Positions 117 to 29,470 of a DNA stretch of 29,470 bases are shown piece after piece; the stretch's first letter is position 1; each line of letters opens with the position of its first letter. Origin of the DNA: Catajapyx aquilonaris (taxonomy: Eukaryota); contig JYFJ02001099.1 of the NCBI GenBank assembly GCA_000934665.2, positions 62,001-91,470 on the forward strand. The letters are read 5' to 3'. The translations under genes were made by a program, and so were the position numbers. A model generated the notes under the pieces. It ran no database searches and was not told the DNA's origin. It saw nothing but the letters and a program-made list of their open reading frames with translations.

Positions 117-1758
117 TTCACAGTAAAGGCCGTGAAAGACTACCAAGCAGCCCAGAGAAACGAACTGTCGTTCAAGACGGGCGCAATCATCACCAATGTC
201 ATCAAGGTGTCTGGTGTGTGGTGGAAGGGCGACTACGGTGGGAAGAAAGGGCATTGGTTCCTTAGAAAATACACGAAGGAAATAGATCAACCAACATCAG
301 GAGCTGAGGAACATCAGCAGACAGTAAGTGTGCGATATATTCCAGTAACATTTAAACGACATTTAATTAATCTAATAACAAGACAGATGAGCCGGAGAGT
401 TGGGCCAAAGGCACGATGGATGTTACGGGCGTTACGGCCGACGTGAGTGAACGGCCTGGAATGCCCTTTCCCTGGAACCTGAGGATTCAGCCGCAGTCCG
501 GACGCAACGTTCTGAACGTCGAGTTCTTCTCGAAGGAAGAAGCCACCAAATGGAAGGACAAGATAGTCGAAATTGCAAGAAAAGCTGCTGATAAGGTCGG
601 ACATTTCGTGTTCCAATGGATCTTCTCGGGGTTCTTTTTTCAATAACAAGCCTCGAGTATCTCATATGGTTTCGTCATATCTGTCTGAATCGTTGGTCCA
701 CAGGAAATCCGTCGTATCAAGATAGAGCGAGAGAAGAAAGTGGCTAAAGAACTATCCAACCTGATAGTCTACTGCCAGGCTGTCACTTTCAATCTGGAGC
801 GTCTGAAGGGTCCAAAGAGATTCAGAGAGATGAGTTCAGTCACGGAGATTCGAGCAGAGAACCTTCTGGTTCGGAGGGAACACATGTTCTTCCTGCATCA
901 CCATCAGATCCAGCTGACCCGGGTCTACCCAAAAGGTCAGCGATTCGATTCGTCCAACTATGACCCGACTCCTTGCTGGAACGTGGGTTGCCATATGGTC
1001 GCACTCAACTACCAGACACCCGACTACTCCATGCAGGTCAGATTAAGATCAGGTCAAAGTTCAAGTGATTCATAATAAATATTGCAGATCAACCATGGAA
1101 TGTTCCTTGGCAATGGAGGCTGCGGGTACCTGCTGCGTCCGGACTGCATGTTCGAACCCGGGTACGACCCGTTTGACCCGGAGACGCTCGGGGTTAGTCA
1201 CACCCGGGTGCTGCGGGTCAGGGTCATCGGAGCCAGACATTTGTCCAGGGTCAGCAGTGGGGGACGGAGACTCGGGGTGCTCTCTCCCTATGTGGTGGTA
1301 GAGGTCATCGGGGCTCCTTACGACTCAGGGGCCAAGAACCGGTACAGCACTCTAGCTTTGAGTAAGTCGCAGCCTTTAAATATGAAATTTGAGTAGTTTT
1401 AATAATGTTTTTAGTTGACAGCGGATTCAGTCCTTTGTGGGACGAATGGACAGATTTGAGTGTGAGGAACCCCGAGTGCGCCTTGCTGAGGTTCGTGGTG
1501 TACGACAAGGATGCGTTCAACGAGCCGCATCTGGTGGGACAGGCGACCTACCCGATCGCCTGCTTACGACAGGGTTACAGGAGCGTACCATTGAAGAACG
1601 GGTACAGCGAAGAGCTAGAGCTGGCGTCGCTTCTGGTGCATCTTCAGGTTCTCATCGGGAAGGAAGAAGAAGAAGAAGAGGTTCAATCACCCAGGATGCT
1701 GCAGGACGGAAGGTTGACAACGTTCTTCGGCGATGACATTGACGAATCGACAATGTAA
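117..1758 (+). CDS. PLCG: Phospholipase C-gamma, 3' part (SH3, C-terminal half of split PH, catalytic Y box, C2); 5' exons lie outside the window
   Basis: Exons 117-323, 383-595, 704-1036, 1088-1361, 1415-1758 join in frame across GT-AG introns. SH3 FTVKAVKDY..ELSF..WWKGDYGGKKGHWF; Y box ELSNLIVYC..EMSS..QLTRVYPKGQRFDSSNYDP..MVALNYQTPD; C2 RVRVIGARHL..LRFVVYDKD..GYRSVPLKNGYSEELELASLLV. The order SH3-cPH-Y-C2 is diagnostic of PLC-gamma. Confidence 0.95.
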
Positions 1759-5290: not shown

Positions 5291-5436
5291 AACCTTCATT
5301 CAGTATGCAAAATATTGTATGTCTGATTTTTATTAAATATATATTTTGCGGTGATAATAACTAGTGAACCCATTGCAAATATTTGGCGAAACCTATCGTA
5401 TAGGACGATCAGACACCTTTAATGAGAAGGCCAGCG

Positions 5437-5560
5437 GATTTATCACGCAGTACTACTCTTCATACGCAGATGGCGCATACTCCCTCTGCACACTCCTGCC
5501 ACCCTCAGGTCGTGCGAGAGATAGCTGTACTATGTCGGACAAACATCCGACAGAGAGAAT
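5437..5560. repeat. Dispersed ~125-bp repeat, copy 1
   Basis: gcagtacta..agatggcgca..ctgcacactcctgccac..ggacaaacatccgac.gagagaat recurs at 11431-11555. Confidence 0.8.
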
Positions 5561-5813
5561 AAGCCTATTAGGAGAAATATTATTTTCCTATAGTCTTAAA
5601 GTGATTTTGTACGCAATTATTAAGAGGCAAGGAAAGAAGTTTGTACAATGTATACAATAATAAGGATGAGCTGCGGTGGAGAAACTAGAAGATAGGAACA
5701 TCAAGGGGGGAGTAACAAGTCTTGTGGTTTCTTGAAAGGATGTTATGACTGTTATTTTTACAAGGAAAGTATCCTTCAGTTCCAAGTGTGTCGTCTTAGG
5801 TTGTTCAGCAACA

Positions 5814-6741
5814 ATGAAGGTTGTTCTCTTCGTCATCGTGGGTGAGTTTGGTTTGTTTGAACCACAGGGCATTGAATCTGAAGCATTAAACCATACGTTG
5901 CTTACACTGTCTTGATTGACAGCGGTTTTTGCTAATTGGTGCATGGGACAGGAGGAGATGCCTTTGTGCTTGGCGAAATCTGAACAAGAACTTGAGGATA
6001 TTGATTCTGATGAGGATGATGTCAGCTTAACTGCTAAGTGCCAGTGAGTAATGGTTTTTAGTATAATTTTTCTTTTAAAAGACACAAAGGCTCGGTTGTA
6101 GTACTGGTACTGAAAGCATGAATATAACTGATCATATTTTTATTAATGAACATTTAGGGTGGAATTTTTGTCACACTGCTAGTTAGCAAAATCATAATTA
6201 TTATGCCCTCATTACCGCCTGGACCTTTGATCATTTGGACGTTAAATTTTTGGACAGTACCTGCTTATACTGTATTATATCCGCAGGGTAATTAAGGATC
6301 TGCATGACTGTTTGAATAAATTGCTGGAAGATGGTTCCTATCCTGAATTACTCGAAGTAAGGGACACATCCGGAAAATTCTACAGGGTAAGTGCACATTG
6401 TAGTTATGTAAGCCCTTTCACATAAATAATGGATACTGCCTCCCTATAATATTGCTTGTAAATTATGGCTTCTCCAAGATGAACAAATTGTATTATTTGC
6501 ATATTGGTTACGTTATGCTACAATGATTGCTTTCCTTTTTTTACAGGAAATCTGTCTGGTGCTGCTTCCAGAAGAATATGAAGACATCGCACCACCTGCC
6601 ACATCACCTGACACGTCTCCTGCTGATGCTGACATAATTGGCAGCAGTAACAATGGATTGTCAATTATTGCACCTCATTTCATCCCGTTCACACTTTTCT
6701 TTTCATTGCACTTCGTATTGCTTGCAATGCTCTTTGTCTAA
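5814..6741 (+). CDS. 4-Cys helical GPI family paralog 4 (147 aa, acidic)
   Basis: Exons 5814-5841, 5923-6043, 6287-6386, 6547-6741. MKVVLFVIVAVFANWCMG-QEEMPLCLAKSEQELEDIDSDEDDVSLTAKCQVIKDLHDCLNKLLED..FYREIC..GSSNNGLSIIAPHFIPFTLFFSLHFVLLAMLFV*. Confidence 0.88.
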
Positions 6742-7809: not shown

Positions 7810-8723
7810 ATGAAGCTGACAGTCCTCTGCGTCCTGGTTATTAGTGAGTTTAGTGAATTCCATGATCGCTCATTTGAACTAATACACATTATCACTAATA
7901 TTTCTTGCAATTTACAGTCACATTATTCGCAACTCAGGAGAGCCGGGGACAGTATTTGTCATGTTTGGATCGACTCGAGCTTGACGGAACATTGGATTCG
8001 CTGTCATTGATGCTCTTCTCTCTAAGCGACAACTACCCTGCTATGTGCAGGTAAGTGTAAACGAGGTTACTATTACGTGGTAATTTGTATTGATTTTTTT
8101 TTCCATTTATGTGTACATACTCATATTATTTATTTTCTCAGGATGAGTAGGCAACTGGCCGATTGTTTGGACAAGCTCCTGAGGGTTCGTCCAATTCCGA
8201 AAGAAAAAGAAGTAGAGTACACTAGTGTCAGGAACAAAGCGCGACGATTTATCACCGTAAGTTCACACATATCTGCTTGACCTCATAATTATATGAGCAA
8301 GTTAAAAAATTCTCCAAATACCAATAGTACTTTCCAAAATAATAGCACATATGGAGGAAGTAACAGCTGTGTTGTCTTATAGACAATGTATGAAACTATC
8401 TTGTATTTATATATGCATTTAATTAACTTATAACGTACCATATAATTTTCGTTCCGTTTCAGAATCATTGCTCAGCGTATCCGCCGGACACAACTATTAA
8501 AGACATATCTACTCCTTCATCACAAACCACGCCCCTGGTACCTCCTCAGACCACGCCCCCTGTTAAAACCACGCCCCTTACACGTCCTCCGACCCCGCCC
8601 TTTCCACAAAACGCCCCGCCTCCTCCAGACAAACTTGGCAGTGGCAGCAACAATGGATTGTCGGTGACCCCACATTATTTCACCCTGTTAATAATGCTTT
8701 ATGTTCACTACTCCTTTGTCTAA
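7810..8723 (+). CDS. 4-Cys helical GPI family paralog 5 (180 aa, long Pro/Thr stalk)
   Basis: Exons 7810-7843, 7918-8050, 8142-8256, 8463-8723. MKLTVLCVLVIITLFATQESRG-QYLSCLDRLE..YPAMCRMSRQLADCLDKLL..FITNHC; TTP repeats; GSGSNNGLSVTPHYFTLLIMLYVHYSFV*; AATAAA at ~8754. Confidence 0.88.
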
Positions 8724-9622: not shown

Positions 9623-9768
9623 TCGTAACATGTGACATGTAGGAATAGTGTTTAAATGTACAGATAAAATACAAACAATATAATGATATATTGTTACTTA
9701 TTAGTTCTGAATAAGCAAACTTTAAAAATTGAGTCCTTTTTTAAAACATTTTAGGGCATCAAACGTAG

Positions 9769-9780
9769 TTGTAACCCTGC
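9769..9780 (+). promoter_or_regulatory. Conserved proximal promoter 12-mer TTGTAACCCTGC (also 12483-12494 and 14553-14564)
   Basis: Identical 12-mer shortly upstream of the first exon of each of three paralogous genes. Confidence 0.65.
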
Positions 9781-9955
9781 TTTGTTTATAGCATGTGGAC
9801 TTCCTTGAACTTTATTCAGTCGCTGTTCGGAGTTGCAGCCGTGCAGTCGGACACGTTGGTCTCCATTCGACAGAAAGGTATGGTAACAGTTCATTTTCGT
9901 CAAATCGTTTTGCTCATTTTTTCCCCCTCCAATTTCCAGTAATTTCGTGACCATC

Positions 9956-11764
9956 ATGGCCGGTCCTGCAGCTGGAGTTATGATAACCAGCGAGATAATT
10001 CGTGCCATCAACAATTCACGAGAGGAAGACATGCGCAAGATAAATGTGCGAGCTGCTGTTGAAGAAGAGCAACGCAGAGGAGACCAAAGAGTCAACGAAG
10101 TGGTCAGTCAATCCATGATATCTGACTTGAAGAGACAGCTGAAGGACAAGGATAGGGAGATTCAGAAAATGGTAAGGACATGCTACAGCGCAGTCATCAC
10201 TGTGAGATTAATACTTTTTATTAAATAAATTCGCAGAAAGAAGAAATAGACAGACTAAAAGAGCAGCTAGATAAAAGTCGTAAGGTTGAAAGTGATCTGC
10301 AACAACAGGTGTATAAAAACAGTGCTGATGAAACTGTTCAGAAGTTCAGGTCTGAACTGGCTGCAGAAAAGCTGGCAGATAGGGACAAGCAGTTGGACAA
10401 AACTGTGAGTCTGTTTGTTTGTTTGTTTGTTTGTTTATTACACTACAAATTCTCCCAACAGAAAGAACTGGTGTCACATTTGACCACTAGACTTCAGAAG
10501 TCTGAAGAAGACATGAGTGACCAAAAAGTTCTAACTGCCAGGATGGAAACAGAGGCAAAAGTGCTGAGAGACCAGCTGACCCTATTCATTGACCACAAGG
10601 AGAAGGTCAGTTGTATCATATACTCATTGAATGTGACCAGCTTGACCTCTGATGGCGTAATTTTTGCAGGATTACGCTCGCTTTGAAAGTGTGCTGCAGA
10701 AGTCGATGGAAGCAATCGTTTACATAATGGACTCCAACCAGAAGATGTTGACTCAGGTTGCTGCAGCCTCGAATCGCCCTGCCCTGGGTCCTGCCCCGAG
10801 CAGGAGCGTCCACAGCTGGATCCAGAGTTTGCCCAGGGTCCCAGAAGATGACCATAGGAGCATATGTTACCCTCAATCTGATGCCAGAACCGTGGTAACC
10901 AGGAGGACATCTGTTCCTGAGACCACCACCAGCAGGAGACCTAGGGACGCCCCTTCTGAGGTCAGCAGGGGTCACCGAAAGCCTGAGAGTGTGACCAGCA
11001 GCCACTGGACCAATGCCCGCAGCATCTCCAGCAGGATCAGCTCCAGCAGCGATCGTAACGCGTACGAGCGCAGGAACATGCCAACAACAATCAGAGCCAC
11101 GTTTCATCCCAAAAACAAGACCGGAATCAACAAGAGGATTGACCTGAGTGGACACAGGGTCGGGGACAGTTTGGAGAAGTTCCTGGAACCCATATTTGAC
11201 CAACATCATGACCTGACCCAAGAGGTCATCAGGAGACCCAGGCAAGCCTGCATCGATGCCCTGCACGATCAAGATTACTCGCTGCGTGTACTAGGTGTCC
11301 TATCATTTAATTTTTAATATCCGATTAATTTCCAAGTAGACTTTCGGATAACTAGGTTATTATTGATAACTAATAACTATATTTCTGTCCATCGAATGTT
11401 TGTCCGACCTCAAGTTATGCGCTGGAGGTCGATTTACTATGCAGTACTATTCTTAACGCATAGATGGCGCACTTCCCCTGCACACTCCTGCCACTCTTAG
11501 GCCGTGCGGGTGATAGGGGTACTATCAGGTGGGACAAACATCCGACGGAGAGAATATTTTTGTTTTTGAATATTTTTCGATGCTCTTGAACCGTTATTCA
11601 TTTACATTTTCCTTTTGTTTTCAGATAAGGACAATAAGAAGTGGATAAGGGTCCGCCAATTAAGCGACCTGATTAACTCATGTCCAGTCGACAGCCAGTA
11701 TATCCACGTCTACATTGTGCACGACGACGACAAGCAAGGAGTCCTTGAAGAACTGACGAAATAA
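9956..11764 (+). CDS. Coiled-coil protein A (430 aa): coiled coil, Ser/Arg-rich linker, C-terminal PB1/ubiquitin-like-looking domain; no membrane anchor
   Basis: Exons 9956-10171, 10237-10404, 10462-10605, 10670-11294, 11625-11764; 5'-UTR intron ~9878-9939. Heptad-rich ISDLKRQLKDKDREIQKMKEEIDRLKEQLDK; C-domain TIRATFHPKNKT..FLEPIFDQHHDL..YSLRVLDKDNKKWIRVRQLSDLINSCPVDSQYIHVYIVH. Confidence 0.82.
11431..11555. repeat. Dispersed ~125-bp repeat, copy 2 (last intron of gene A)
   Basis: Aligns with 5437-5560. Confidence 0.8.
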
Positions 11765-12227
11765 TTGTGATTAAAAAAGCATTTTTGTAATAATTGTTCC
11801 AAAAAAAACTATACATCAGCGTTAACCGGATATTAATTACTGTACGTTTGTACCTCAATATTATGTGTATATTATAATCATGCGAAAAATAAAAAGCGAG
11901 GCATTTTCAGTCTTCAAACGTTCGTAATTGCTACTGTACAGCCTATTTTTACAACAGGTGTATGACCGGCGTATGTAAAGATGGTAAGTGCACAGTACTG
12001 GATTTTGTACGAGCATCAATTCATGATCATGGTCAATTTCCGGATTCATCTTAGGTAAGTAAAAGAAGGTCAAAGTCACTTATTGGTGACTCCGTCCGGC
12101 GACATTACGTCCTTTATTGCGCTCTTCAAGTAGCTTGATTGACCTAATCTACGCTTTATAAATAACGATGTGTATCACCACTTCCTGTTTCGGACTTCGA
12201 TAATAACCATCAACCAGCACAGTGAGA

Positions 12228-12238
12228 GGGGAATTCCC
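12228..12238. promoter_or_regulatory. kB site GGGGAATTCCC upstream of coiled-coil gene B
   Basis: Palindromic canonical kB core; weaker GGGACTTTTT at ~12370; Inr-like TCAGTC at ~12508 and ~12515. Confidence 0.5.
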
Positions 12239-12598
12239 TCTAACCGTAATTCCCAGAAAGCCCTGGCAATGTTCCATTATCTACAACTACCCACACATAC
12301 CAAGGGATGTCCAAAGTTGGTGCAGGTTTTTGCTGGGGTCGACAATCGACGACTTATTCCTATAGCTGGGGGACTTTTTGGAAAGTGCGAACACGTGTGA
12401 CATAAAATGCTAGTGTATGATCGTTCTGTAAATTGCAATAAAAATAAACTGCATCGTAAAATTGAAAGTACGTCCTAGTTAGTTGTAACCCTGCCCACAT
12501 GTTACTATCAGTCGTCAGTCGGCATCTGGCCTTGGATAGAAGCAGAGGTCCAGTTGAGGATACACAGCTCTTTTAAATCCTCCAAAGTCTGAATAACT

Positions 12599-14253
12599 AT
12601 GGGAGCGTAAGTACATGTTACAGTTAACTTTAATTACTTGGAAGCCAATCGGTTCAATTAGTCTTTATGGGACTAACAGTAAGTTTTTAAAAATTTTTTT
12701 TAAATGGAACATGATATCAAAATGTGCAATTTCCTAAGTGAGTGTTTGGTTAATTTTTTATACTGTACTGTACTTGCACTATAAAAATGTCCATTTTACG
12801 TGACGCAATTTATTTATGTATGCTCAGCTTGTTGTTGTAAAAAATATGACATGCTCATTTTTTTGAGGTGACAGAAAAATATGAATTTAGCTGTTTTTTT
12901 TTTTGTGTGTGTGTTTGAAAATGACAACTATGAAATTTTTTTGTTTCAGTGATGGAAGCAAGGAAGCTTTAGAAAGAGACAATCGTAACCTGAGCAGTGA
13001 GATACGAAGGAAGGATGAAGAGGTCAAGGTCATTCGACACGACATCAGTCACCTCAATGACACAATTAGGGAAGGAAGATCTCGTCTTGAACGAGAGGTA
13101 AGAAGCCTATGACTCATTTATGAAACACTTTGTACACAGTATACATTTTTGTGTGTGTGTGTAATATGACAGGAAGAAGAGAGCAGACGGATGCGCAGAA
13201 GGATTGACAAGTTGGACCATACCAACAGGGGACTTGAAAATGAAACAATTAGGCAAAAACACGAGCTCAGATTGAGGGATGTGCAGATAGAGCTGGCGAA
13301 AGAAGAGCTGAAAAATTCGGAAAGGAGAATGAAGAAAAAGGTAAAGCCAAATTTTGTGACAGTTCAACAAGATATTTTTTTTGCTGATTCATTATTAGGA
13401 ACATGATTTGAGATGTTTGCGAGAAGACATAGAAATTCTGGCTGAAGAGAAAAGAGAGGTGGAAATAATTGCAGCAAGGACACAACGACAATGCGAAATG
13501 CTGGTTTGGCAAAATGAGCGTGATCGCGAATCATACGAGGAGAGACTGGCCATTATGGATCGACAAGCTGAAAGAGTAAGTCTTAATTGCAATTATATTT
13601 AACTGCAATGATTTCAACTTTGTTTTTTTGCAGAGCAGCAACGCAATCCGTCTTTTATGCGGCACTATCAACACTTTTGTCAACAACCAACCCACGAACT
13701 GCCTTCCATCAACCGGAACCACTCTTGCAATAACAAACGGAACGTCTGTTTCCCCAAGAAGACAACAATCCAGAAGAAACCTTGTCAGAAAAGTGTCTTT
13801 GACATTTTGCCCACTAGGAAAGACAAGTAGCGCAATACGGAAATTTCCACTTCTGGCCAAAGAAAAAGAAGGATCATATCTGGACTCCATATTTTACCTT
13901 CATGAGGATCTCAGGTCGGCCATTATCCCTGGATACAACCAGGATTTCTTAAGTGCACTGAAAAGCAATGGATATGAAGTGTTCCTCGTAGGTGAGTTGC
14001 CTTTTGTGCTTGTTTTTCTGCTTGTACTTCTTTCTGCCTATTTATAGATCCAGAGTACTACAACTTTGTGAAGATGACTACCCCAAGGACCCTGAAGAAG
14101 TTCATTCGAGACACACCTGAGAACAGTAGTCACCTGAGGTTTTATGTTGTACATGGAATGGAAGGAATGAAACGAATTCATCACGAAATGAATGGGTTCG
14201 ACTGCGCCTGGTTCTTTGTCATCATCTTCAGCTTTTTCTTAATTTTTTCATAG
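12599..14253 (+). CDS. Coiled-coil protein B (354 aa): predicted N-myristoylation, coiled coil, PB1/Ub-like-looking domain, C-terminal tail anchor
   Basis: Exons 12599-12606, 12950-13097, 13173-13340, 13399-13575, 13634-13991, 14048-14253. Starts MGADGSK (G2,S6,K7); domain KVSLTFCPLGKT..YLDSIFYLHEDL..YEVFLVDPEYYNFVKM..HLRFYVVH; ends CAWFFVIIFSFFLIFS*. Confidence 0.85.
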
Positions 14254-14618
14254 GCTTCAGTTATTGGCGAATTAGTGGTGTCAATTTAAAAAAACAACAA
14301 CAGATCACCACAAATTGTCAAATGTACATATTGCATAAGAAAAAAAAAGTGTAAAGTGTCCAAAATGTGATCTTCATGATTATAATTCCTTGTTTATATA
14401 TATTAGACCCTATAACCTGCTATAACTACAAGTAGTAAATAGAATTGTGTAGTTTATACGTATCTGAGAGCCATGTCAGTTAAATAAAGCGATTTTCTCC
14501 TAATTATTTATTCCTTCTGACAGGTGTCTGTAATGTGAATGTTTTTACCTAATTGTAACCCTGCTCAGTTGTTATCATTTGCATACCAGACTCTGTAGAA
14601 ACCAGTGCAGCTGAAGCT

Positions 14619-16219
14619 ATGGGAGGGTAAGTACACACTATTTGGTCAGTTACATTTGGTGTTGTTTAAACCAACAAAGGCAGTATGTGGAAGTTCTGGA
14701 AAAGTTTATGCTTGCTGAAAAAAAAAAGTGGGCCAATCAAAATTATAACAAAAAAAATTCGTTTCAGAAACGAAAGCAAACAAGGTTTGGAAAAAGGTAA
14801 TCGTAACCTGAGCAGTGAAATACACAGGAAGGATCAAGAGGTCAGGGTCATTCGACATGACATTAGACATCTTAATGACCAAATTAGGGATGGAAGAGAT
14901 CGAATTGAACGAGAGGTAAGGATCTATATGATTCATTATGAAACACTCTGTACACACAGTACATTCGGTATATGTGACAGGAAAAAGAGAGCAGACGGAT
15001 GCGACGGATGATGGAAGATTTGGACTATACAAACCAGGGACTTGAATATGACGTAATAAAGCAAATGCAAGAGCTCAAAGTGAAGGAAGTGCAGATAGAG
15101 CAGGCGAAATACGAGCTGGAAGAATACCAAGAAAGAATGATGGAAATGGTATGCCAATTATTAATTTTGCAACTATATTTTACTAATTTTGCCGTTTTTT
15201 TTGTTGACACGCCATATAGAAAGATGATTTGCAAAGGTTGCTGGCGGACATGGAAAATCTGGAGGATGAGAAGAGAGAGGCTGAAATATATGCAGCTAGG
15301 AAAGAACGCGAATGCGAAATGCTCGTTTGGCGAAATCACCGAGACCGCGAAACATACGAGGAGAGACAGGCCATTATGGATCGACAAGCTGAAAGGGTAA
15401 GTTTTTTTTTTTTGCAAGATTTTTGGCAACACTGCCCTGCCCGCTTCCCACTGTGGATGTAGTACGACATGCCACCAACCAGATGGCGCGCCCATCAGCA
15501 CACTTACTCTCACCACGCGGTAACTATGGTAGCTACATGCACGTTGGTGATGAGTCAACACGTGTATAAAGACACGCCCAGCCAATTCTTAATAAGGACA
15601 ATTCGCACTACATTTTGGGTATGTTGTAATGATATTACATGTCAGTTGTTTCGAATTTCAGGACAGTAACAAGATCCAATTTTTATGCAACACGATCAGC
15701 AGTGGTGGAAACGCACAGTCCAGTCTTCCATGGTCAACAACCAAGCTTGCATTGACAGATTCGCCATTTCTGTCCAATAAGACAGAAGAGCCATCAAGTT
15801 CTTACCTTCATGGTCTCTTGGGTGAGGACTTTGTCGTTATAGCTAGGTTCACAACGGACGTCGTTGTCGTTAGGTTGGGATTGGACCAAAACCAGGATGG
15901 ACCATATACAAAGATGCTGTGATTGGTTCATCCCAACAGCAACGACAGCCCGTGCGTGAACACATCTTTATTTTTCTTTTACATGTTACTTATTGTCTAT
16001 AAGTCAACATCTGTTCCCGCTGTTTCAGACCCTGAATATCACGAAATTTTGGGAAAGGCTGGCACAAGAATTAAGAAGAAGTTGGTTCCAGACACACCCA
16101 AGACCAGCAGCAGCAGTCATCTGGAGAAAAAGGAACACAAATTGAACTGGCTCGATTACATCTGGTTTCTATTCGTCATCTTCTGCCTCTACACTATTTA
16201 TTTAATAGTCTTCAGATAG
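14619..16219 (+). CDS. Coiled-coil protein C (283 aa): close paralog of B, myristoylation motif and tail anchor kept, globular domain largely deleted
   Basis: Exons 14619-14626, 14768-14915, 14981-15148, 15220-15396, 15662-15821, 16029-16219; exons 1-4 have the same lengths as in B (8,148,168,177). Starts MGGNESK; ends WLDYIWFLFVIFCLYTIYLIVFR*. Confidence 0.85.
15838..15970. mobile_element. Degenerate palindromic MITE in the last intron of gene C
   Basis: gttcacaacgg..tgtcgttaggttgggattggaccaa / ttggttcatcccaacagcaacgaca..ccgtgcgtgaac form imperfect inverted arms. Confidence 0.5.
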
Positions 16220-16424
16220 TGCATTTTGTCAATTAAAAACAGTCTGAAATATAGCTCCACAATTTGGGGCGAACATGATTTTAAATAATTGCTTATTATT
16301 ACTAAAGTGCTAATTACAGCATCACTTTCATACAGAAGAGTCATGTCCAGTTTGCCTGAAACAATAGCTAATTAACATGTCTCCAAAAGGGAATTAACTT
16401 GCGGCGGATTGTAACCAACCTTTG

Positions 16425-18044
16425 CTAAAAACGTGTCCTGTCGTCTGCACCTGACCTTTTGTGTGACCTGGCACATGTTTCCTGAGTACATTTCCACTCT
16501 GCATTCAATCGAGACATGTCCAATTGCATCTGATGTACTTGATCTTGCAGGTGTTTAATTTTGGTGTAGGTCCCTCCAGACTGAAATAATTTAACAGGTG
16601 GTTAACAGTGTTAACCATCTGTAAAATGATTTCTCTCTGTTGAATTATGTTGAGACTAAATCGTGTTAACCGAACATGGTTTGTCTGGACGTAATTCGAC
16701 ACTGACAGAAATCGGTTGGGTTGCATCATGCAAGGATGAAAAGTAACCCAAGTGTAACCTTTTCATTTTTTTGCAACATAACAGTATAGTGTTCATAGTT
16801 TGTATAAATAGACATAATAATTAAAGAATTGTCCTACTATTTGACTTACCAAACTTACTTTATAGTCAGACTTGTCCTGCATAGTTTCCTGGAGTCTCTC
16901 GACATCATGCTTCTGAGTCATTTGCATGGCAGACATTGAGTTTTTGATTTCATCCAGAGCCAAACTTTGCTGGTGCTGCTTAGCCTTCATCACCCTGATT
17001 TGTGTAGATATTTCGTTGAATTTTAAGTTAGTCTGAAATTAACATACGTCATTTTAGAGGATTCGGCGACGGAAGTGTCGTAGGCTGTATCCTCGTTTGA
17101 TGAATGATGCTGCCCCCCCCCCCCCCAAAACAACCTCTATATAAAGGGATCATCTGTATAGTGTCCAAAGAGTCTAAATAACATGGTACATCATTAATAC
17201 AATTACCTGGAACACAATGTGTTCAACTTTGCTGACAATTTTAGCTCTGTCAATTATTTCTGTGGAGTCATACTCGTTTTTCATTCCTTGAATTGTTACA
17301 TTCATGCTGTAGACAAACTCGGTCAAAGACTGCACCTCGGATTTCAACCTGTGACGTATACAGTTAAATGAGTAATCACTACAAATGTAACATACCCATA
17401 AAGACTTACGTGTCACTTGAAGATTTTGACGAAGAAAATCGACTTTTTGAAGAGTAAGCGCCATCATAGTGATTTTCCTTCTTAAATCACATAAATTTAA
17501 TTAGCACGTTTCATAATGTCTCATTACAACAAATAAAAGGGCTCACCTTTTGCTTGGCTGACCCAGAGTATGACTTCACCTGTCCTTTCCAATCATCAAT
17601 GTCTCGAGCTTGAGCTTTCTGTCATGTACCCAAAATATTATTTATTCTTGCGAATCTAAAATATATATAATTATATATTTTTAAATTATTGCTTACAAGA
17701 GTTGCTCGAAAATCATTAGTGTCTCGTTTCCTTTGCTCTGTCACTTCTTTTCTCAAGTGGTCCAACTCTCTTCGTTGACTCGAAGCAGATTCGTCACATG
17801 CTTTTCGGACGTCCCTGAACCTGTCGTCCACATCTCGAAGTGACCTGGACAAGTTGTCCACATCGCTCTTCAGACGCCTCACCTCATCATCCAATCGACT
17901 GGGATTTTTTTTTAAATAATTAAAACAGAACAATCAGTGTCGTATAAAGAACGCCTATACTGTGGTCAGTTAATTAATTAATTGATTGATTGATTGGCTG
18001 ATTGATGTGGTTCACTGCCCTATAAGGTGAACTTACCAGCTCAT
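16425..18044 (-). CDS. Coiled-coil protein D (~274 aa), convergent with gene C; last exon uncertain
   Basis: Minus-strand exons 18044-18037, 17898-17697, 17618-17547, 17480-17410, 17348-17207, 17032-16859, 16580-16425 join in frame: MSCRLDDEVRRLKSDVDNLSRSLRDVDDRFRDVRK..LKSEVQSLTEFV..LDEIKNSMSAMQ..KIKHLQDQVHQMQLDMSRLNAEWK. Confidence 0.7.
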
Positions 18045-20046: not shown

Positions 20047-20215
20047 ATAGGGAAGGAAGGAAGCGGCTGTGGCCTATTATACGGAAGCGACCCCGGAATT
20101 ATCCTAGACAGACCGTGGAAAACCACGGTCAGGGTTGCCGGCCCTGGGATTCGAACCCAGGACCTCCCGATTAGCAGTCGGACGCCCACTATCCACTATG
20201 CCAACCTGCTTCGGT
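20047..20215 (-). mobile_element. tRNA-derived SINE, copy 1
   Basis: Minus strand: A box TGGCATAGTGG, B box GGTTCGAATCC, followed by a non-tRNA body ending ccttccttcccta; homologous to 27673-27851. Confidence 0.85.
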
Positions 20216-20226
20216 CCCCAGTGGTA

Positions 20227-21400
20227 CAGTGCTGGACAAATTAGCCGTCACGGAATGTTTTTTCCCCGTCGGCGACGGCGCTGCCTGGCAACCCCGTCCG
20301 GCGGGCCAATTCAAACACCAGCACATGGAGAGTGCTTCCATTGTTGCCACTGTTTACAAATCGAGGGAGTGACACGGACGACCCAGCGACGGGTCTCTTC
20401 TGCCTGCTCACACAGTATCGGCAGGGATACGCAGGAGAATATGGGAAAATAATGATGTTAGAAGCAAACCACGCTGGGCAAATATTATCCCTGGACTCAA
20501 AGAGAGGTTTTCGTCCTCAGCACACAAAATACAATATTCCACCCCTGAGGAGGGGGTGCCAATGATTAAGGTCAGGGGTGTGCTAATTGAAAGTGCGTCA
20601 ACTGGTGGATTCTTTCGGTTTTTGTGTCTTTTCCGCGTACTTCGACACCTCGAAGACGAATGGAGACCATGCCCCGTATGACAGACACCACGTCAGTCGT
20701 GTAATTTGTCCCCAAAGACGTCATATCTTAAAATGGCTTCCGCTGTTCCGCATATATACCAGTACGTGTCGTTCACGTCATATTCGCACCAGGAAGAGAT
20801 CCACGACTAACATGACACGTACAGGGGTTGGACACAATAACATGAACACCTGCAACAAGCGTTAGTCGTGTATCTCTTCCTGGCGCGAATATGACGTGAA
20901 TGACACTTACTCGTAGGCCTATATGCGGAACAGCGGAAGCCATTTTGAGATATGATGTCTTTGGGGACAAATTACGAGACTGACATGGTGTCTGACATAC
21001 GGGGCATGGTCTCCATTCGTCTTCAAGGTGTCGGAAAAGACACAAAAACCAAAAGAATCCGCCGGTTGACGCACTTTCAATTGGCACACCCCTGATCTTA
21101 ATTGACACCCCCTCCTCATGGGTGGAATATTGTATTTCGTGTGCTGTGGACGAAGACCTTTCTTTGAGTCCAGGGATAATATTTTCCCAATGGTTTGCTT
21201 CAAACATCATTATTTTCCCATTTTCTCCTGCGTATCCCTGCCGATACTGCGTGAGCAGGCAGAAGAGACCCGTCGCTGGGTCGTCCGCATCACTCCCTCG
21301 ATTTGTGAACAATGGCAACAATGGAAGCACTCTCCGTGTGCTGGTGTTTGAATTGGCCTGCCAGACGGGTTGTCAGCGACGGCTAATTTGTCCAGCACTG
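20227..21400. mobile_element. 1174-bp Tc1-type non-autonomous foldback element
   Basis: TA|CAGTGCTGGACAAATTAGCCGTC...GACGGCTAATTTGTCCAGCACTG|TA; arms ~20227-20810 and ~20861-21400 align as an inverted repeat; CAGTGCTGG ends with a TA target duplication are Tc1-like. Confidence 0.92.
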
Positions 21401-27672: not shown

Positions 27673-27851
27673 ACCAAAGCAGGTTGGTGGAGTGGCTATA
27701 GGGTCCGACTGCTAATCGGGAGGTCCTGGGTTCGAGCCCCGGGGCCAGCAACTCTAACCGTCGTTTTCTGTGGTTTCCCACGGTCCCTCCAGGAGAATTC
27801 CGGAGTTGTTTCCTAAAATAATGGGCCGCCGCCGCCTCCTTCCTTCCCTAT
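27673..27851 (+). mobile_element. tRNA-derived SINE, copy 2
   Basis: aagcaggttggtggagtgg..gtccgactgctaatcgggaggtcctgggttcgagccc..ccttccttcccta, same family as 20047-20215, opposite orientation. Confidence 0.85.
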
Positions 27852-28564: not shown

Positions 28565-29470
28565 ATGGAAGGCCAAGGGAGGGCAAGAGGTAGGGCCAGG
28601 GGCCGCACGCAGGCTCAGGCCATGGGGGAAGGGGCGGCCAGGCCAGGGAGTGAACCGGTGGCATCAGGATCCCAGACGCGCCCCCCGGTTGGAGGCGGAA
28701 GGGCCGTGGCTGCAGGGGAGAGACCTCCTGCTCCGGGAAGGTCCCAGGCACCACCAGTCCCGCAGGAGGCAGCCGCCCAGCCAGAGAGGGTCGTGACCGC
28801 TGGTGCCGCTAGCTTGCAGAGGGAGTTGGCCGCAATGGCCATCCAGGAGGGTGAGCCACTTCATTTGCTAGCATTGCTTTTGCAGGCCTCGTCAAGTGCT
28901 CCAAGTACAAGGTGCATTGATCTCCCACATGTTGCATGTTGATCAGGTGGCATGATTATGCTTTTACAGGAAGTGGCAAGGAGGTGCTGGTGGGCAGGGG
29001 AGGCGCCAGGGAGAGTAGGGATCGCCGAGTTGAACATGTTCGCACCCGCCCAGACCACGTCAGCAGCAAGCAGGGCAGCACAGGCAGGGTCGTCAAGCTG
29101 ATGGCCAATTACTTTGAAGTGGTCAAGCGTCCAGAGTGGACCCTGGTTCAATATCGGGTGGACTTCACCCCAGAAGAGGACCGCACATCTGTCCGGAAGG
29201 GGATGCTGCGTTCCTGCCGTGAAAAATTGGGGGGAGACTACATTTTTGACGGAACTGTCCTGTACATGAATCGCCGCCTCCCAGGGGATCGCCTGAACAC
29301 CTGCTGCGAACGTGGGACCGACCAGGAGAAGATACAAGTGACTGTCCGCATGGTGGGGGAGTTGCAACCATCAGATCACATGTACCTCCAGGTGTTCAAC
29401 ATCCTGCTGAGGCGCACCATGGGGCACTTGAAGCTGGAGATGATAAATCGCCACTTCTACGACCGCCATG
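28565..29470 (+). CDS. piwi: Piwi/Aubergine-clade Argonaute, N-terminal part (truncated by window end)
   Basis: Exons 28565-28850 and 28970->29470 (phase 1). MEGQGRARGRARGR (RG/RA methylation motif), RTRPDHVSSKQGSTGRVVKLMANYF, WTLVQYRVDFTPEED, YIFDGTVLY, YLQVFNILLRRTMGHLKLEMINRHFYD: typical PIWI-clade N and L1 domains. piwi versus aub cannot be resolved here. Confidence 0.95.

Follow-up and report, generated by a model that had tools for sequence, protein, structure and literature searches.

Two tandem coiled-coil genes of Catajapyx aquilonaris with a predicted N-myristoyl start and C-terminal tail anchor

A stretch of 29,470 nucleotides (nt) from Catajapyx aquilonaris (GenBank assembly GCA_000934665.2, contig JYFJ02001099.1, positions 62,001 to 91,470, here called the window) contains two adjacent genes, B and C, whose products have a real, apparently lineage-restricted and unusual architecture. 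Each protein starts with a Met-Gly sequence that fits the N-myristoylation consensus, continues as a long coiled coil and ends in a hydrophobic segment at the C-terminus; the attachment to lipid and membrane is predicted from these features. B and C are real, transcribed genes. An earlier note on this DNA had picked out the two ends and the rod between them and had seen in them a cytosolic rod bridging two membranes. Its description of the sequences has largely held up, while the bridge, though possible, is supported by no result obtained here. We tentatively favour a reading in which B and C are tail-anchored rods whose predicted myristate would act as a weak sorting signal or cis contact.

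N-myristoylated proteins that are also tail-anchored are rare. Should both anchors be functional, this family would represent a naturally occurring and very simple device that tethers or spaces membranes, and if the myristate merely aids sorting, B and C would add an animal case to a targeting rule that is poorly understood. A set for comparison is present at the locus itself: a related gene A that has no anchors, B with anchors and a globular domain, and C with anchors only.

Gene models and transcript support

B and C each consist of six exons with GT..AG at every intron, and their first four exons are equal in length at 8, 148, 168 and 177 nt (Table 1). The 8-nt exon 1 together with the start of exon 2 encodes M-G-A-D-G-S-K in B and M-G-G-N-E-S-K in C. 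Transcript evidence was taken from the contigs of one public run, X1, whose kind is not on record, mapped on positions 9700-16500; the run matches a third of the sampled words of the whole window. Contigs span all five introns of B (12606>12950, 13097>13173, 13340>13399, 13575>13634 and 13991>14048), and another covers 14045-14287 in the region of exon 6. The contig at the first of these joints has 36 nt on its 5' side and so holds the entire 8-nt exon plus part of the 5' untranslated region (UTR), which supports for B the tiny first coding exon that the earlier note had wanted confirmed. For C, two of the five introns are spanned (15148>15220 and 15821>16029), and its contigs are thinner than those of B, contig depth being a poor measure. 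X1 has no cover at 14467-14920, where exons 1 and 2 of C lie, or over gene A, and is uninformative there either way.

Both start codons have a purine at -3, A in B and G in C, and both have G at +4. An in-frame TGA lies 9 nt upstream of the B ATG, within the 36 nt covered by the contig, and in-frame stops lie at -63 and -69 upstream of the C ATG; no in-frame upstream ATG occurs within 150 nt of either start. Since B has this TGA at -9 and no in-frame upstream ATG, it is unlikely that its translation starts elsewhere, which was one of the ways in which the earlier note thought it might be proven wrong.

The regions upstream of A, B and C are otherwise diverged and have a single long conserved block in common, the 12-mer TTGTAACCCTGC, which stands 176 nt from the ATG in A, 105 nt in B and 55 nt in C. 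Its three exact matches compare with an expected mean of 0.13, and none of 100 shuffles reached three. The block is a candidate promoter or transcription-factor element common to the three genes.

Table 1. Coordinates of the coiled-coil genes, their parts, the shared upstream block and neighbouring genes in the window.
Feature	Position	Strand	Description
Gene B	12599-14253	+	Six exons, 354 residues
B exon 1	12599-12606	+	8-nt first coding exon (ATG GGA GC); contig joint 12606>12950
B exons 2-4	12950-13097, 13173-13340, 13399-13575	+	Heptad (coiled-coil) region, residues 3-167; three joined introns
B exon 5	13634-13991	+	Probable linker (about 45 residues) followed by the initial ~73 residues of the globular domain common with A
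B exon 6	14048-14253	+	Domain end, short basic stretch, apolar tail, stop codon
B tail	14203-14250	+	Residues 339-354
Gene C	14619-16219	+	Six exons, 283 residues
C exon 1	14619-14626	+	8-nt first coding exon (ATG GGA GG); position and length as in B
C exons 2-4	14768-14915, 14981-15148, 15220-15396	+	Heptad region; lengths equal to those of B
C exon 5	15662-15821	+	Linker and domain remnant, ended by the donor at 15821
C exon 6	16029-16219	+	Linker, apolar tail, one trailing Arg, stop codon
C tail	16157-16213	+	Residues 264-282
Gene A	9956-11764	+	Exons 9956-10171, 10237-10404, 10462-10605, 10670-11294, 11625-11764; 430 residues
Shared 12-mer TTGTAACCCTGC	9769-9780, 12483-12494, 14553-14564	+	Upstream of A, B and C
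Gene D	18044-16425	-	Convergent, seven exons, 274 residues, all introns GT-AG
PLC-gamma-like exons	117-1755	+	SH3, Y-box and C2 region; PLC-gamma-1 chains are the best solved relatives (expectation value E ~2e-29)
Piwi-like N-terminal exons	28921-29469	+	Silkworm Siwi E 2e-38 versus mammalian PIWIL1 1e-24

The N-terminal myristoylation motif

The published N-myristoylation consensus is Met1-Gly2-X-X-X-Ser/Thr6 (PMC3724820). B and C both satisfy it, as the earlier note had indicated, and both also fit a stricter pattern, modelled on PROSITE PS00008, in which Met-Gly is followed by any residue other than E, D, R, K, H, P, F, Y or W, two free positions, one of S, T, A, G, C or N, and any residue other than Pro. 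Residues 3 to 5 all differ between the two proteins, through five base changes, and Gly2, Ser6 and Lys7 are kept, the last of these through a synonymous change. Retention of just these positions amid changed neighbours is the pattern that would be expected if the requirements of the enzyme had been selected. The N-terminal glycine of B and C is probably myristoylated during translation.

Under the two-signal rule for acylated proteins, a lone myristate binds membranes only weakly. No second membrane signal, whether a palmitoylatable Cys or a basic cluster, adjoins Gly2 in either protein. The first Cys is residue 114 in B and residue 140 in C, leaving none near Gly2 that could be palmitoylated, and residues 2-30 carry a net charge of -1 in B and +1 in C, with no basic patch beside the glycine. 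The lack of a nearby Cys and the near-zero charge argue for a weak anchor.

The coiled-coil rod and the C-terminal tail

Residues 8-167 of B and C contain no Pro and are about 50% charged. The mean best-register heptad score in this region is 0.47-0.48, compared with 0.25 +/- 0.04 in shuffles (z 6.2 for each protein), and none of 300 shuffles reached the observed score of either. A single heptad register is held over about 110-130 residues and the last 30 or so are less regular, so that the length of some 165 residues claimed earlier stands as far as the heptad pattern is concerned and is slightly generous at its C-terminal end. At about 0.148 nm per coiled-coil residue, 160 heptad residues would form a rod of about 24 nm, if continuous. 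A predicted complex of two copies of B exon 2 scored 0.09 against a mark of 0.32, which speaks neither for nor against self-association.

Kyte-Doolittle 19-residue windows above 1.6 start solely at positions 334-336 of 354 in B and 259-265 of 283 in C, with maxima of 2.05 and 2.42; no such window occurs elsewhere in either protein, and the hydrophilic N-termini contain no hydrophobic segment. The uninterrupted apolar run is 16 residues long in B and 19 in C, followed by no residue in B and by one (Arg) in C, just as the earlier note had described. Both proteins thus have the sequence features of a tail anchor, namely a lone hydrophobic segment at the C-terminus with few residues trailing it. 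The two tails align, so the ancestral gene from which B and C descend already encoded one. In B the rod is separated from the tail by a probable linker of 45 residues and the globular domain, and in C by a probable linker of 95 residues; these linkers aligned poorly and gave low-confidence models.

Two other identities for these proteins were considered and rejected. A SNARE would not be expected to have its heptad region end 95-185 residues before the tail, as it does in B and C, and none of the seven exon translations of B and C reached the cut-off of a Pfam SNARE or synaptobrevin family. A glycosylphosphatidylinositol (GPI) signal was rejected for the C-terminal hydrophobic stretch because the proteins have no route into the lumen.

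Relationships among A, B and C

B and C are closely similar over most of their length (pairwise blastp E 5.9e-85, 41% identity over 353 residues). Across codons 1-167, encoded by exons 1-4, the two genes share 106 of 167 residues and 397 of 501 bases, with non-synonymous (dN) and synonymous (dS) divergences of 0.21 and 0.41 and a dN/dS of 0.50. Changes were counted at 30.5 of 96 synonymous and 73.5 of 405 non-synonymous sites, which by simple arithmetic places the non-synonymous proportion (pN) about 2.7 standard errors below the synonymous one (pS). From these comparisons B and C are best described as fairly young tandem duplicates under moderate purifying selection.

They differ in the globular domain, which in C is truncated to a remnant because exon 5 ends at a donor inside the domain (15821), a structure confirmed by the contig joint 15821>16029. 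The claim that C has kept both of its ends though its domain is lost is therefore borne out by the alignment and by this joint, with the qualification that a domain remnant persists. Intron 4 is also longer in C, at 265 nt versus 58 nt in B, and the part of it at 15422-15567 (plus strand) attracts loose-ended contigs and odd joints (15443>15534 and 15445>15535), marking the insertion of a repeat element.

Gene A, upstream of B, has five exons and encodes a coiled coil, a long Ser/Thr/Pro/Arg-rich linker and a globular domain of about 110 residues that aligns with that of B. The A-B similarity is lower (blastp E 3.4e-11, 28% over 142 residues; 32% identity over 73 residues in an exon-limited alignment), and a phase-1 intron within the domain has an identical position in all three genes. 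The protein encoded by A begins Met-Ala-Gly, thus lacking Gly2, and has no Kyte-Doolittle window above 1.6 and no hydrophobic tail. Its ATG is in the second exon, after an apparent intron in the 5' UTR, whereas in B and C the first exon carries the ATG, 8 nt ahead of the donor. Presence of the lipidation signal would accordingly depend on the exon in which translation starts. A, B and C appear to form a small lineage-restricted gene family.

Searches for relatives and the fold of the domain

Homology searches were run with single exons rather than joined proteins. B exon 5 (119 residues) gave no matches at E up to 0.001 in a HMMER search against 1.84 billion representatives, no scored match among the 296 candidates of a word search among longer proteins, and no match among PDB sequences at E up to 10. 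In the protein library, none of the 3 candidates for B exon 4 (59 residues) and none of the 17 for the domain part of A (75 residues) scored. The best ESM Atlas score for B exon 5 was 0.76, under the lead level of 0.9, and A exon 4 had no usable match there. Seven exon translations of B and C returned five sub-threshold Pfam hits (PhoU, Csm1_N, ATG14, SOGA and DUF1129) and none at the cut-off, and nine of A and D returned sub-threshold hits alone, mostly to coiled-coil families. The blanks show no more than that a close, easily found relative is absent from the libraries searched. They are weak evidence of novelty, given such short queries and a possibly sparse coverage of this animal group in those libraries.

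An AlphaFold2 model of the 73-residue exon-5 part of the B domain, built with A as the second of two rows, was unusable (mean predicted local distance difference test score 50, predicted template-modelling score 0.33). From the pattern of residues one might guess at a beta-grasp-like alpha/beta fold.

Comparison with known proteins

The separate elements of this architecture all have precedents. An acyl anchor, a coiled coil and a second anchor are combined in GAP45, a myristate and a C-terminal anchor in OEF18, and a tail anchor carrying a rod is common. Our full-text literature search, whose scope took in few subscription journals, found no description of an N-myristoylated, tail-anchored protein with a long coiled coil.

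In GAP45, N-terminal acylation by both myristate and palmitate places one end in the plasma membrane, an extended coiled coil follows, and the C-terminus is anchored at the inner membrane complex, which keeps the two membranes at a constant distance (PMC4231161). The gliding-associated proteins GAP45 and GAP70 of apicomplexan parasites resemble B and C in having an N-terminal acyl anchor (predicted in B and C), a coiled-coil spacer and a C-terminal anchor, and in being paralogues that differ in length. They differ in that the GAP45 C-terminus is held by protein partners while B and C end in hydrophobic tails of their own. The dual-acylation signature of GAP45, Gly2 with a nearby Cys, is also absent from B and C, which have no Cys in their first 113 residues. 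GAP45 is apicomplexan and B and C are animal proteins; the likeness is one of design, and homology is not claimed.

Two further proteins join N-myristoylation to a membrane anchor on the cytosolic side, as is predicted for B and C. In the Arabidopsis protein OEF18, a myristoylated and C-terminally anchored EF-hand protein, a G2A mutant is mistargeted; the authors of this report call the combination unusual, state that tail-anchored proteins are "generally not myristoylated" and count four proteins common to the Arabidopsis tail-anchored list and the myristoylome (bioRxiv 10.64898/2026.08.13.744648). NADH-cytochrome b5 reductase is reported to require its myristate for the outer mitochondrial membrane and not for that of the endoplasmic reticulum (ER) (PMC2133939). 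Unlike B and C, both are small and globular with no long coiled coil, and the anchor of the reductase is N-terminal where that of B and C is C-terminal. In both of these published cases myristate serves organelle targeting, not bridging, which weighs against a stable bridge in B and C.

A cytosolic coiled-coil rod standing on a C-terminal tail anchor is found in golgin-84, giantin, CASP and SLMAP, and a further likeness to B and C may lie in the distal tip, which in these proteins captures something. Their rods are much longer than those of B and C, and their tips bind through protein motifs. We know of none among the four with an N-myristoyl tip, and their Pfam families had no match in any exon of A to D. 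In tetherin/BST-2, too, a coiled coil is anchored to membrane at both ends, and here the resemblance is one of analogy alone. Tetherin has an N-terminal transmembrane helix, a luminal or extracellular coiled coil and a C-terminal GPI anchor, a topology opposite to that of B and C, which have no N-terminal hydrophobic segment and hence cannot enter the secretory lumen. The earlier note had been careful to claim no homology with golgins or tetherin, and none was found; the idea of a role in virus release has no basis in the data.

Proposed mode of action and alternatives

In the reading that we tentatively favour, B and C would be wholly cytosolic proteins whose tail inserts post-translationally into an organelle membrane. 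The strong apolarity of the tails, with at most one residue after them, makes an ER-type membrane seem the most likely target, an assignment to which general rules for tail anchors lend weak support. The proline-free heptad rod of about 160 residues would be joined to the tail via a flexible linker and, in B, a small globular domain would adjoin the membrane. Given that there is no second signal beside Gly2, the myristate would provide a weak, avidity-dependent contact, helping to sort the protein or to keep it attached to its home membrane, on whose surface the rod would lie or to which it would loop back; a flexible linker of 45-95 residues would allow the rod tip to reach the membrane in which the tail sits. 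Other membranes would be touched transiently at most, and B and C would scaffold a surface or tether over short range without forming a permanent bridge. The data show the gene structures, splicing, motifs, heptad pattern, hydrophobic tails and paralogy; acylation, membrane insertion, oligomeric state, organelle and the choice of cis over trans contact are all inferred.

Several points weigh against this reading. The apolar run of B, at 16 residues, is short for spanning a bilayer. With 63% identity, four given positions would by simple arithmetic all be retained with a probability of about 0.16, and since no orthologues were found, the conservation of Gly2, Ser6 and the tail rests on two paralogues of shared ancestry. 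A dN/dS of 0.5 indicates moderate constraint at most. Exons 1 and 2 of C are without transcript cover in the X1 contigs, and as the kind of this run is not on record, the joined form could be a processed DNA copy rather than complementary DNA (cDNA); such a copy, too, would stem from a transcript with this splicing. Finally, a rigid parallel dimer with two myristates could still bridge membranes.

The next best explanation, which we consider rather unlikely, is that the Gly2 motif is incidental and unused, and that B and C are ordinary tail-anchored coiled-coil proteins with a free or acetylated N-terminus. In favour of this, the consensus itself is short and degenerate, an acidic residue stands at position 4 in B and at position 5 in C, and paralogue A does without Gly2. 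The motif was moreover inherited by two young paralogues (dS 0.41), so that its conservation between them is weak evidence. Set against this are the retention of Gly2, Ser6 and Lys7 while positions 3 to 5 changed at five nucleotide sites, and the dedicated 8-nt exon that supplies Met-Gly in both genes and has been seen in a contig for B.

The bridge proposed in the earlier note appears unlikely. There, a parallel coiled-coil dimer would stand off its home membrane and insert two myristoylated tips into a second one, so that the protein would by itself space or tether two organelles, or an organelle and the plasma membrane, about 24 nm apart, with C as its minimal version. Such a role would suit the placing of lipophilic ends at both extremes of a long heptad region held in one register, and the keeping of both ends in C despite its truncated domain; a length of about 24 nm is also within the usual range of contact sites. 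The design has a precedent in GAP45, which carries palmitate as well as myristate (PMC4231161). B and C would carry a single myristate on each chain, reinforced by neither a palmitoylatable Cys nor a basic patch, and with a flexible linker of 45-95 residues the rod can lie flat on the home membrane. The missing second signal, the flexible linker and the published roles of myristate in targeting lead us to place a cis or transient role ahead of a stable bridge. In its fullest form, with B and C as two-ended animal membrane spacers holding the tail in one membrane and paired myristoylated tips in the apposed one, the idea is more doubtful still. If true, the spacer would need no protein partner to fix the gap at about 24 nm, and animals would have evolved, independently, an equivalent of the apicomplexan GAP45 ruler, with C as a minimal "anchor-rod-anchor" form and the soluble A as a natural control.

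It is least likely, and in our view improbable, that C or both genes are decaying duplicates without maintained function whose ends have merely not yet eroded: the loss of most of the globular domain of C, its thinner contigs (a poor measure), the dN/dS of 0.5 and the repeat insertion that has enlarged its intron 4 would fit such decay, but C retains an intact frame of 283 codons with canonical splice sites at homologous places, spliced contigs cross two of its introns including the one with the new donor, and pN is significantly below pS.

Neighbouring genes and repeats

The whole window is eukaryotic in character, with short GT-AG introns, and the matches of its flanking genes point to an invertebrate animal. 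Four coiled-coil genes lie between the flanking PLC-gamma-like and Piwi-like genes, with A, B and C on the plus strand and D on the minus strand. D starts with Met-Ser-Cys and has an 8-nt first coding exon, no Kyte-Doolittle 19-residue window above 1.6 and no hydrophobic tail. Pairwise comparison shows a weak similarity with C (E 0.009 over 27 residues), which does not establish paralogy.

One contig joint skips 16121-16419, a segment with CT..AC ends that correspond to a minus-strand GT..AG intron starting 5 nt past the stop codon of D. The 3' UTR of D appears to be spliced and to run antisense over the last coding exon of C. The same contig includes the 15821>16029 joint of C and is probably an assembly merge of sense and antisense transcripts. 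A tail-less isoform of C formed through the joint 16120>16420 was considered and rejected, as its CT..AC ends are those of a minus-strand GT..AG intron and belong to the convergent gene D.

Three similar Pro/Thr-rich open frames on the plus strand (2596-2886, 6430-6738 and 8427-8720) each end in a small-residue stretch of Ser, Asn and Gly followed by a hydrophobic tail, resembling a GPI-attachment signal. They may be the last exons of three tandem genes for small mucin-like surface proteins.

Rfam and tRNA scans of the window returned two tRNA-Ser-like elements alone, at 20136-20209 (minus strand) and 27679-27750 (plus strand), both outside the locus. Inverted copies of one repeat, with near-identical translations, lie at 20245-20562 (plus) and 20776-21372 (minus); adjoining a tRNA-Ser(GCT)-like element, the pair looks like a tRNA-derived or other mobile repeat. 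Two further open frames on the plus strand, at 5361-5657 and, inside the last intron of A, at 11464-11589, have a motif in common that suggests another dispersed repeat.

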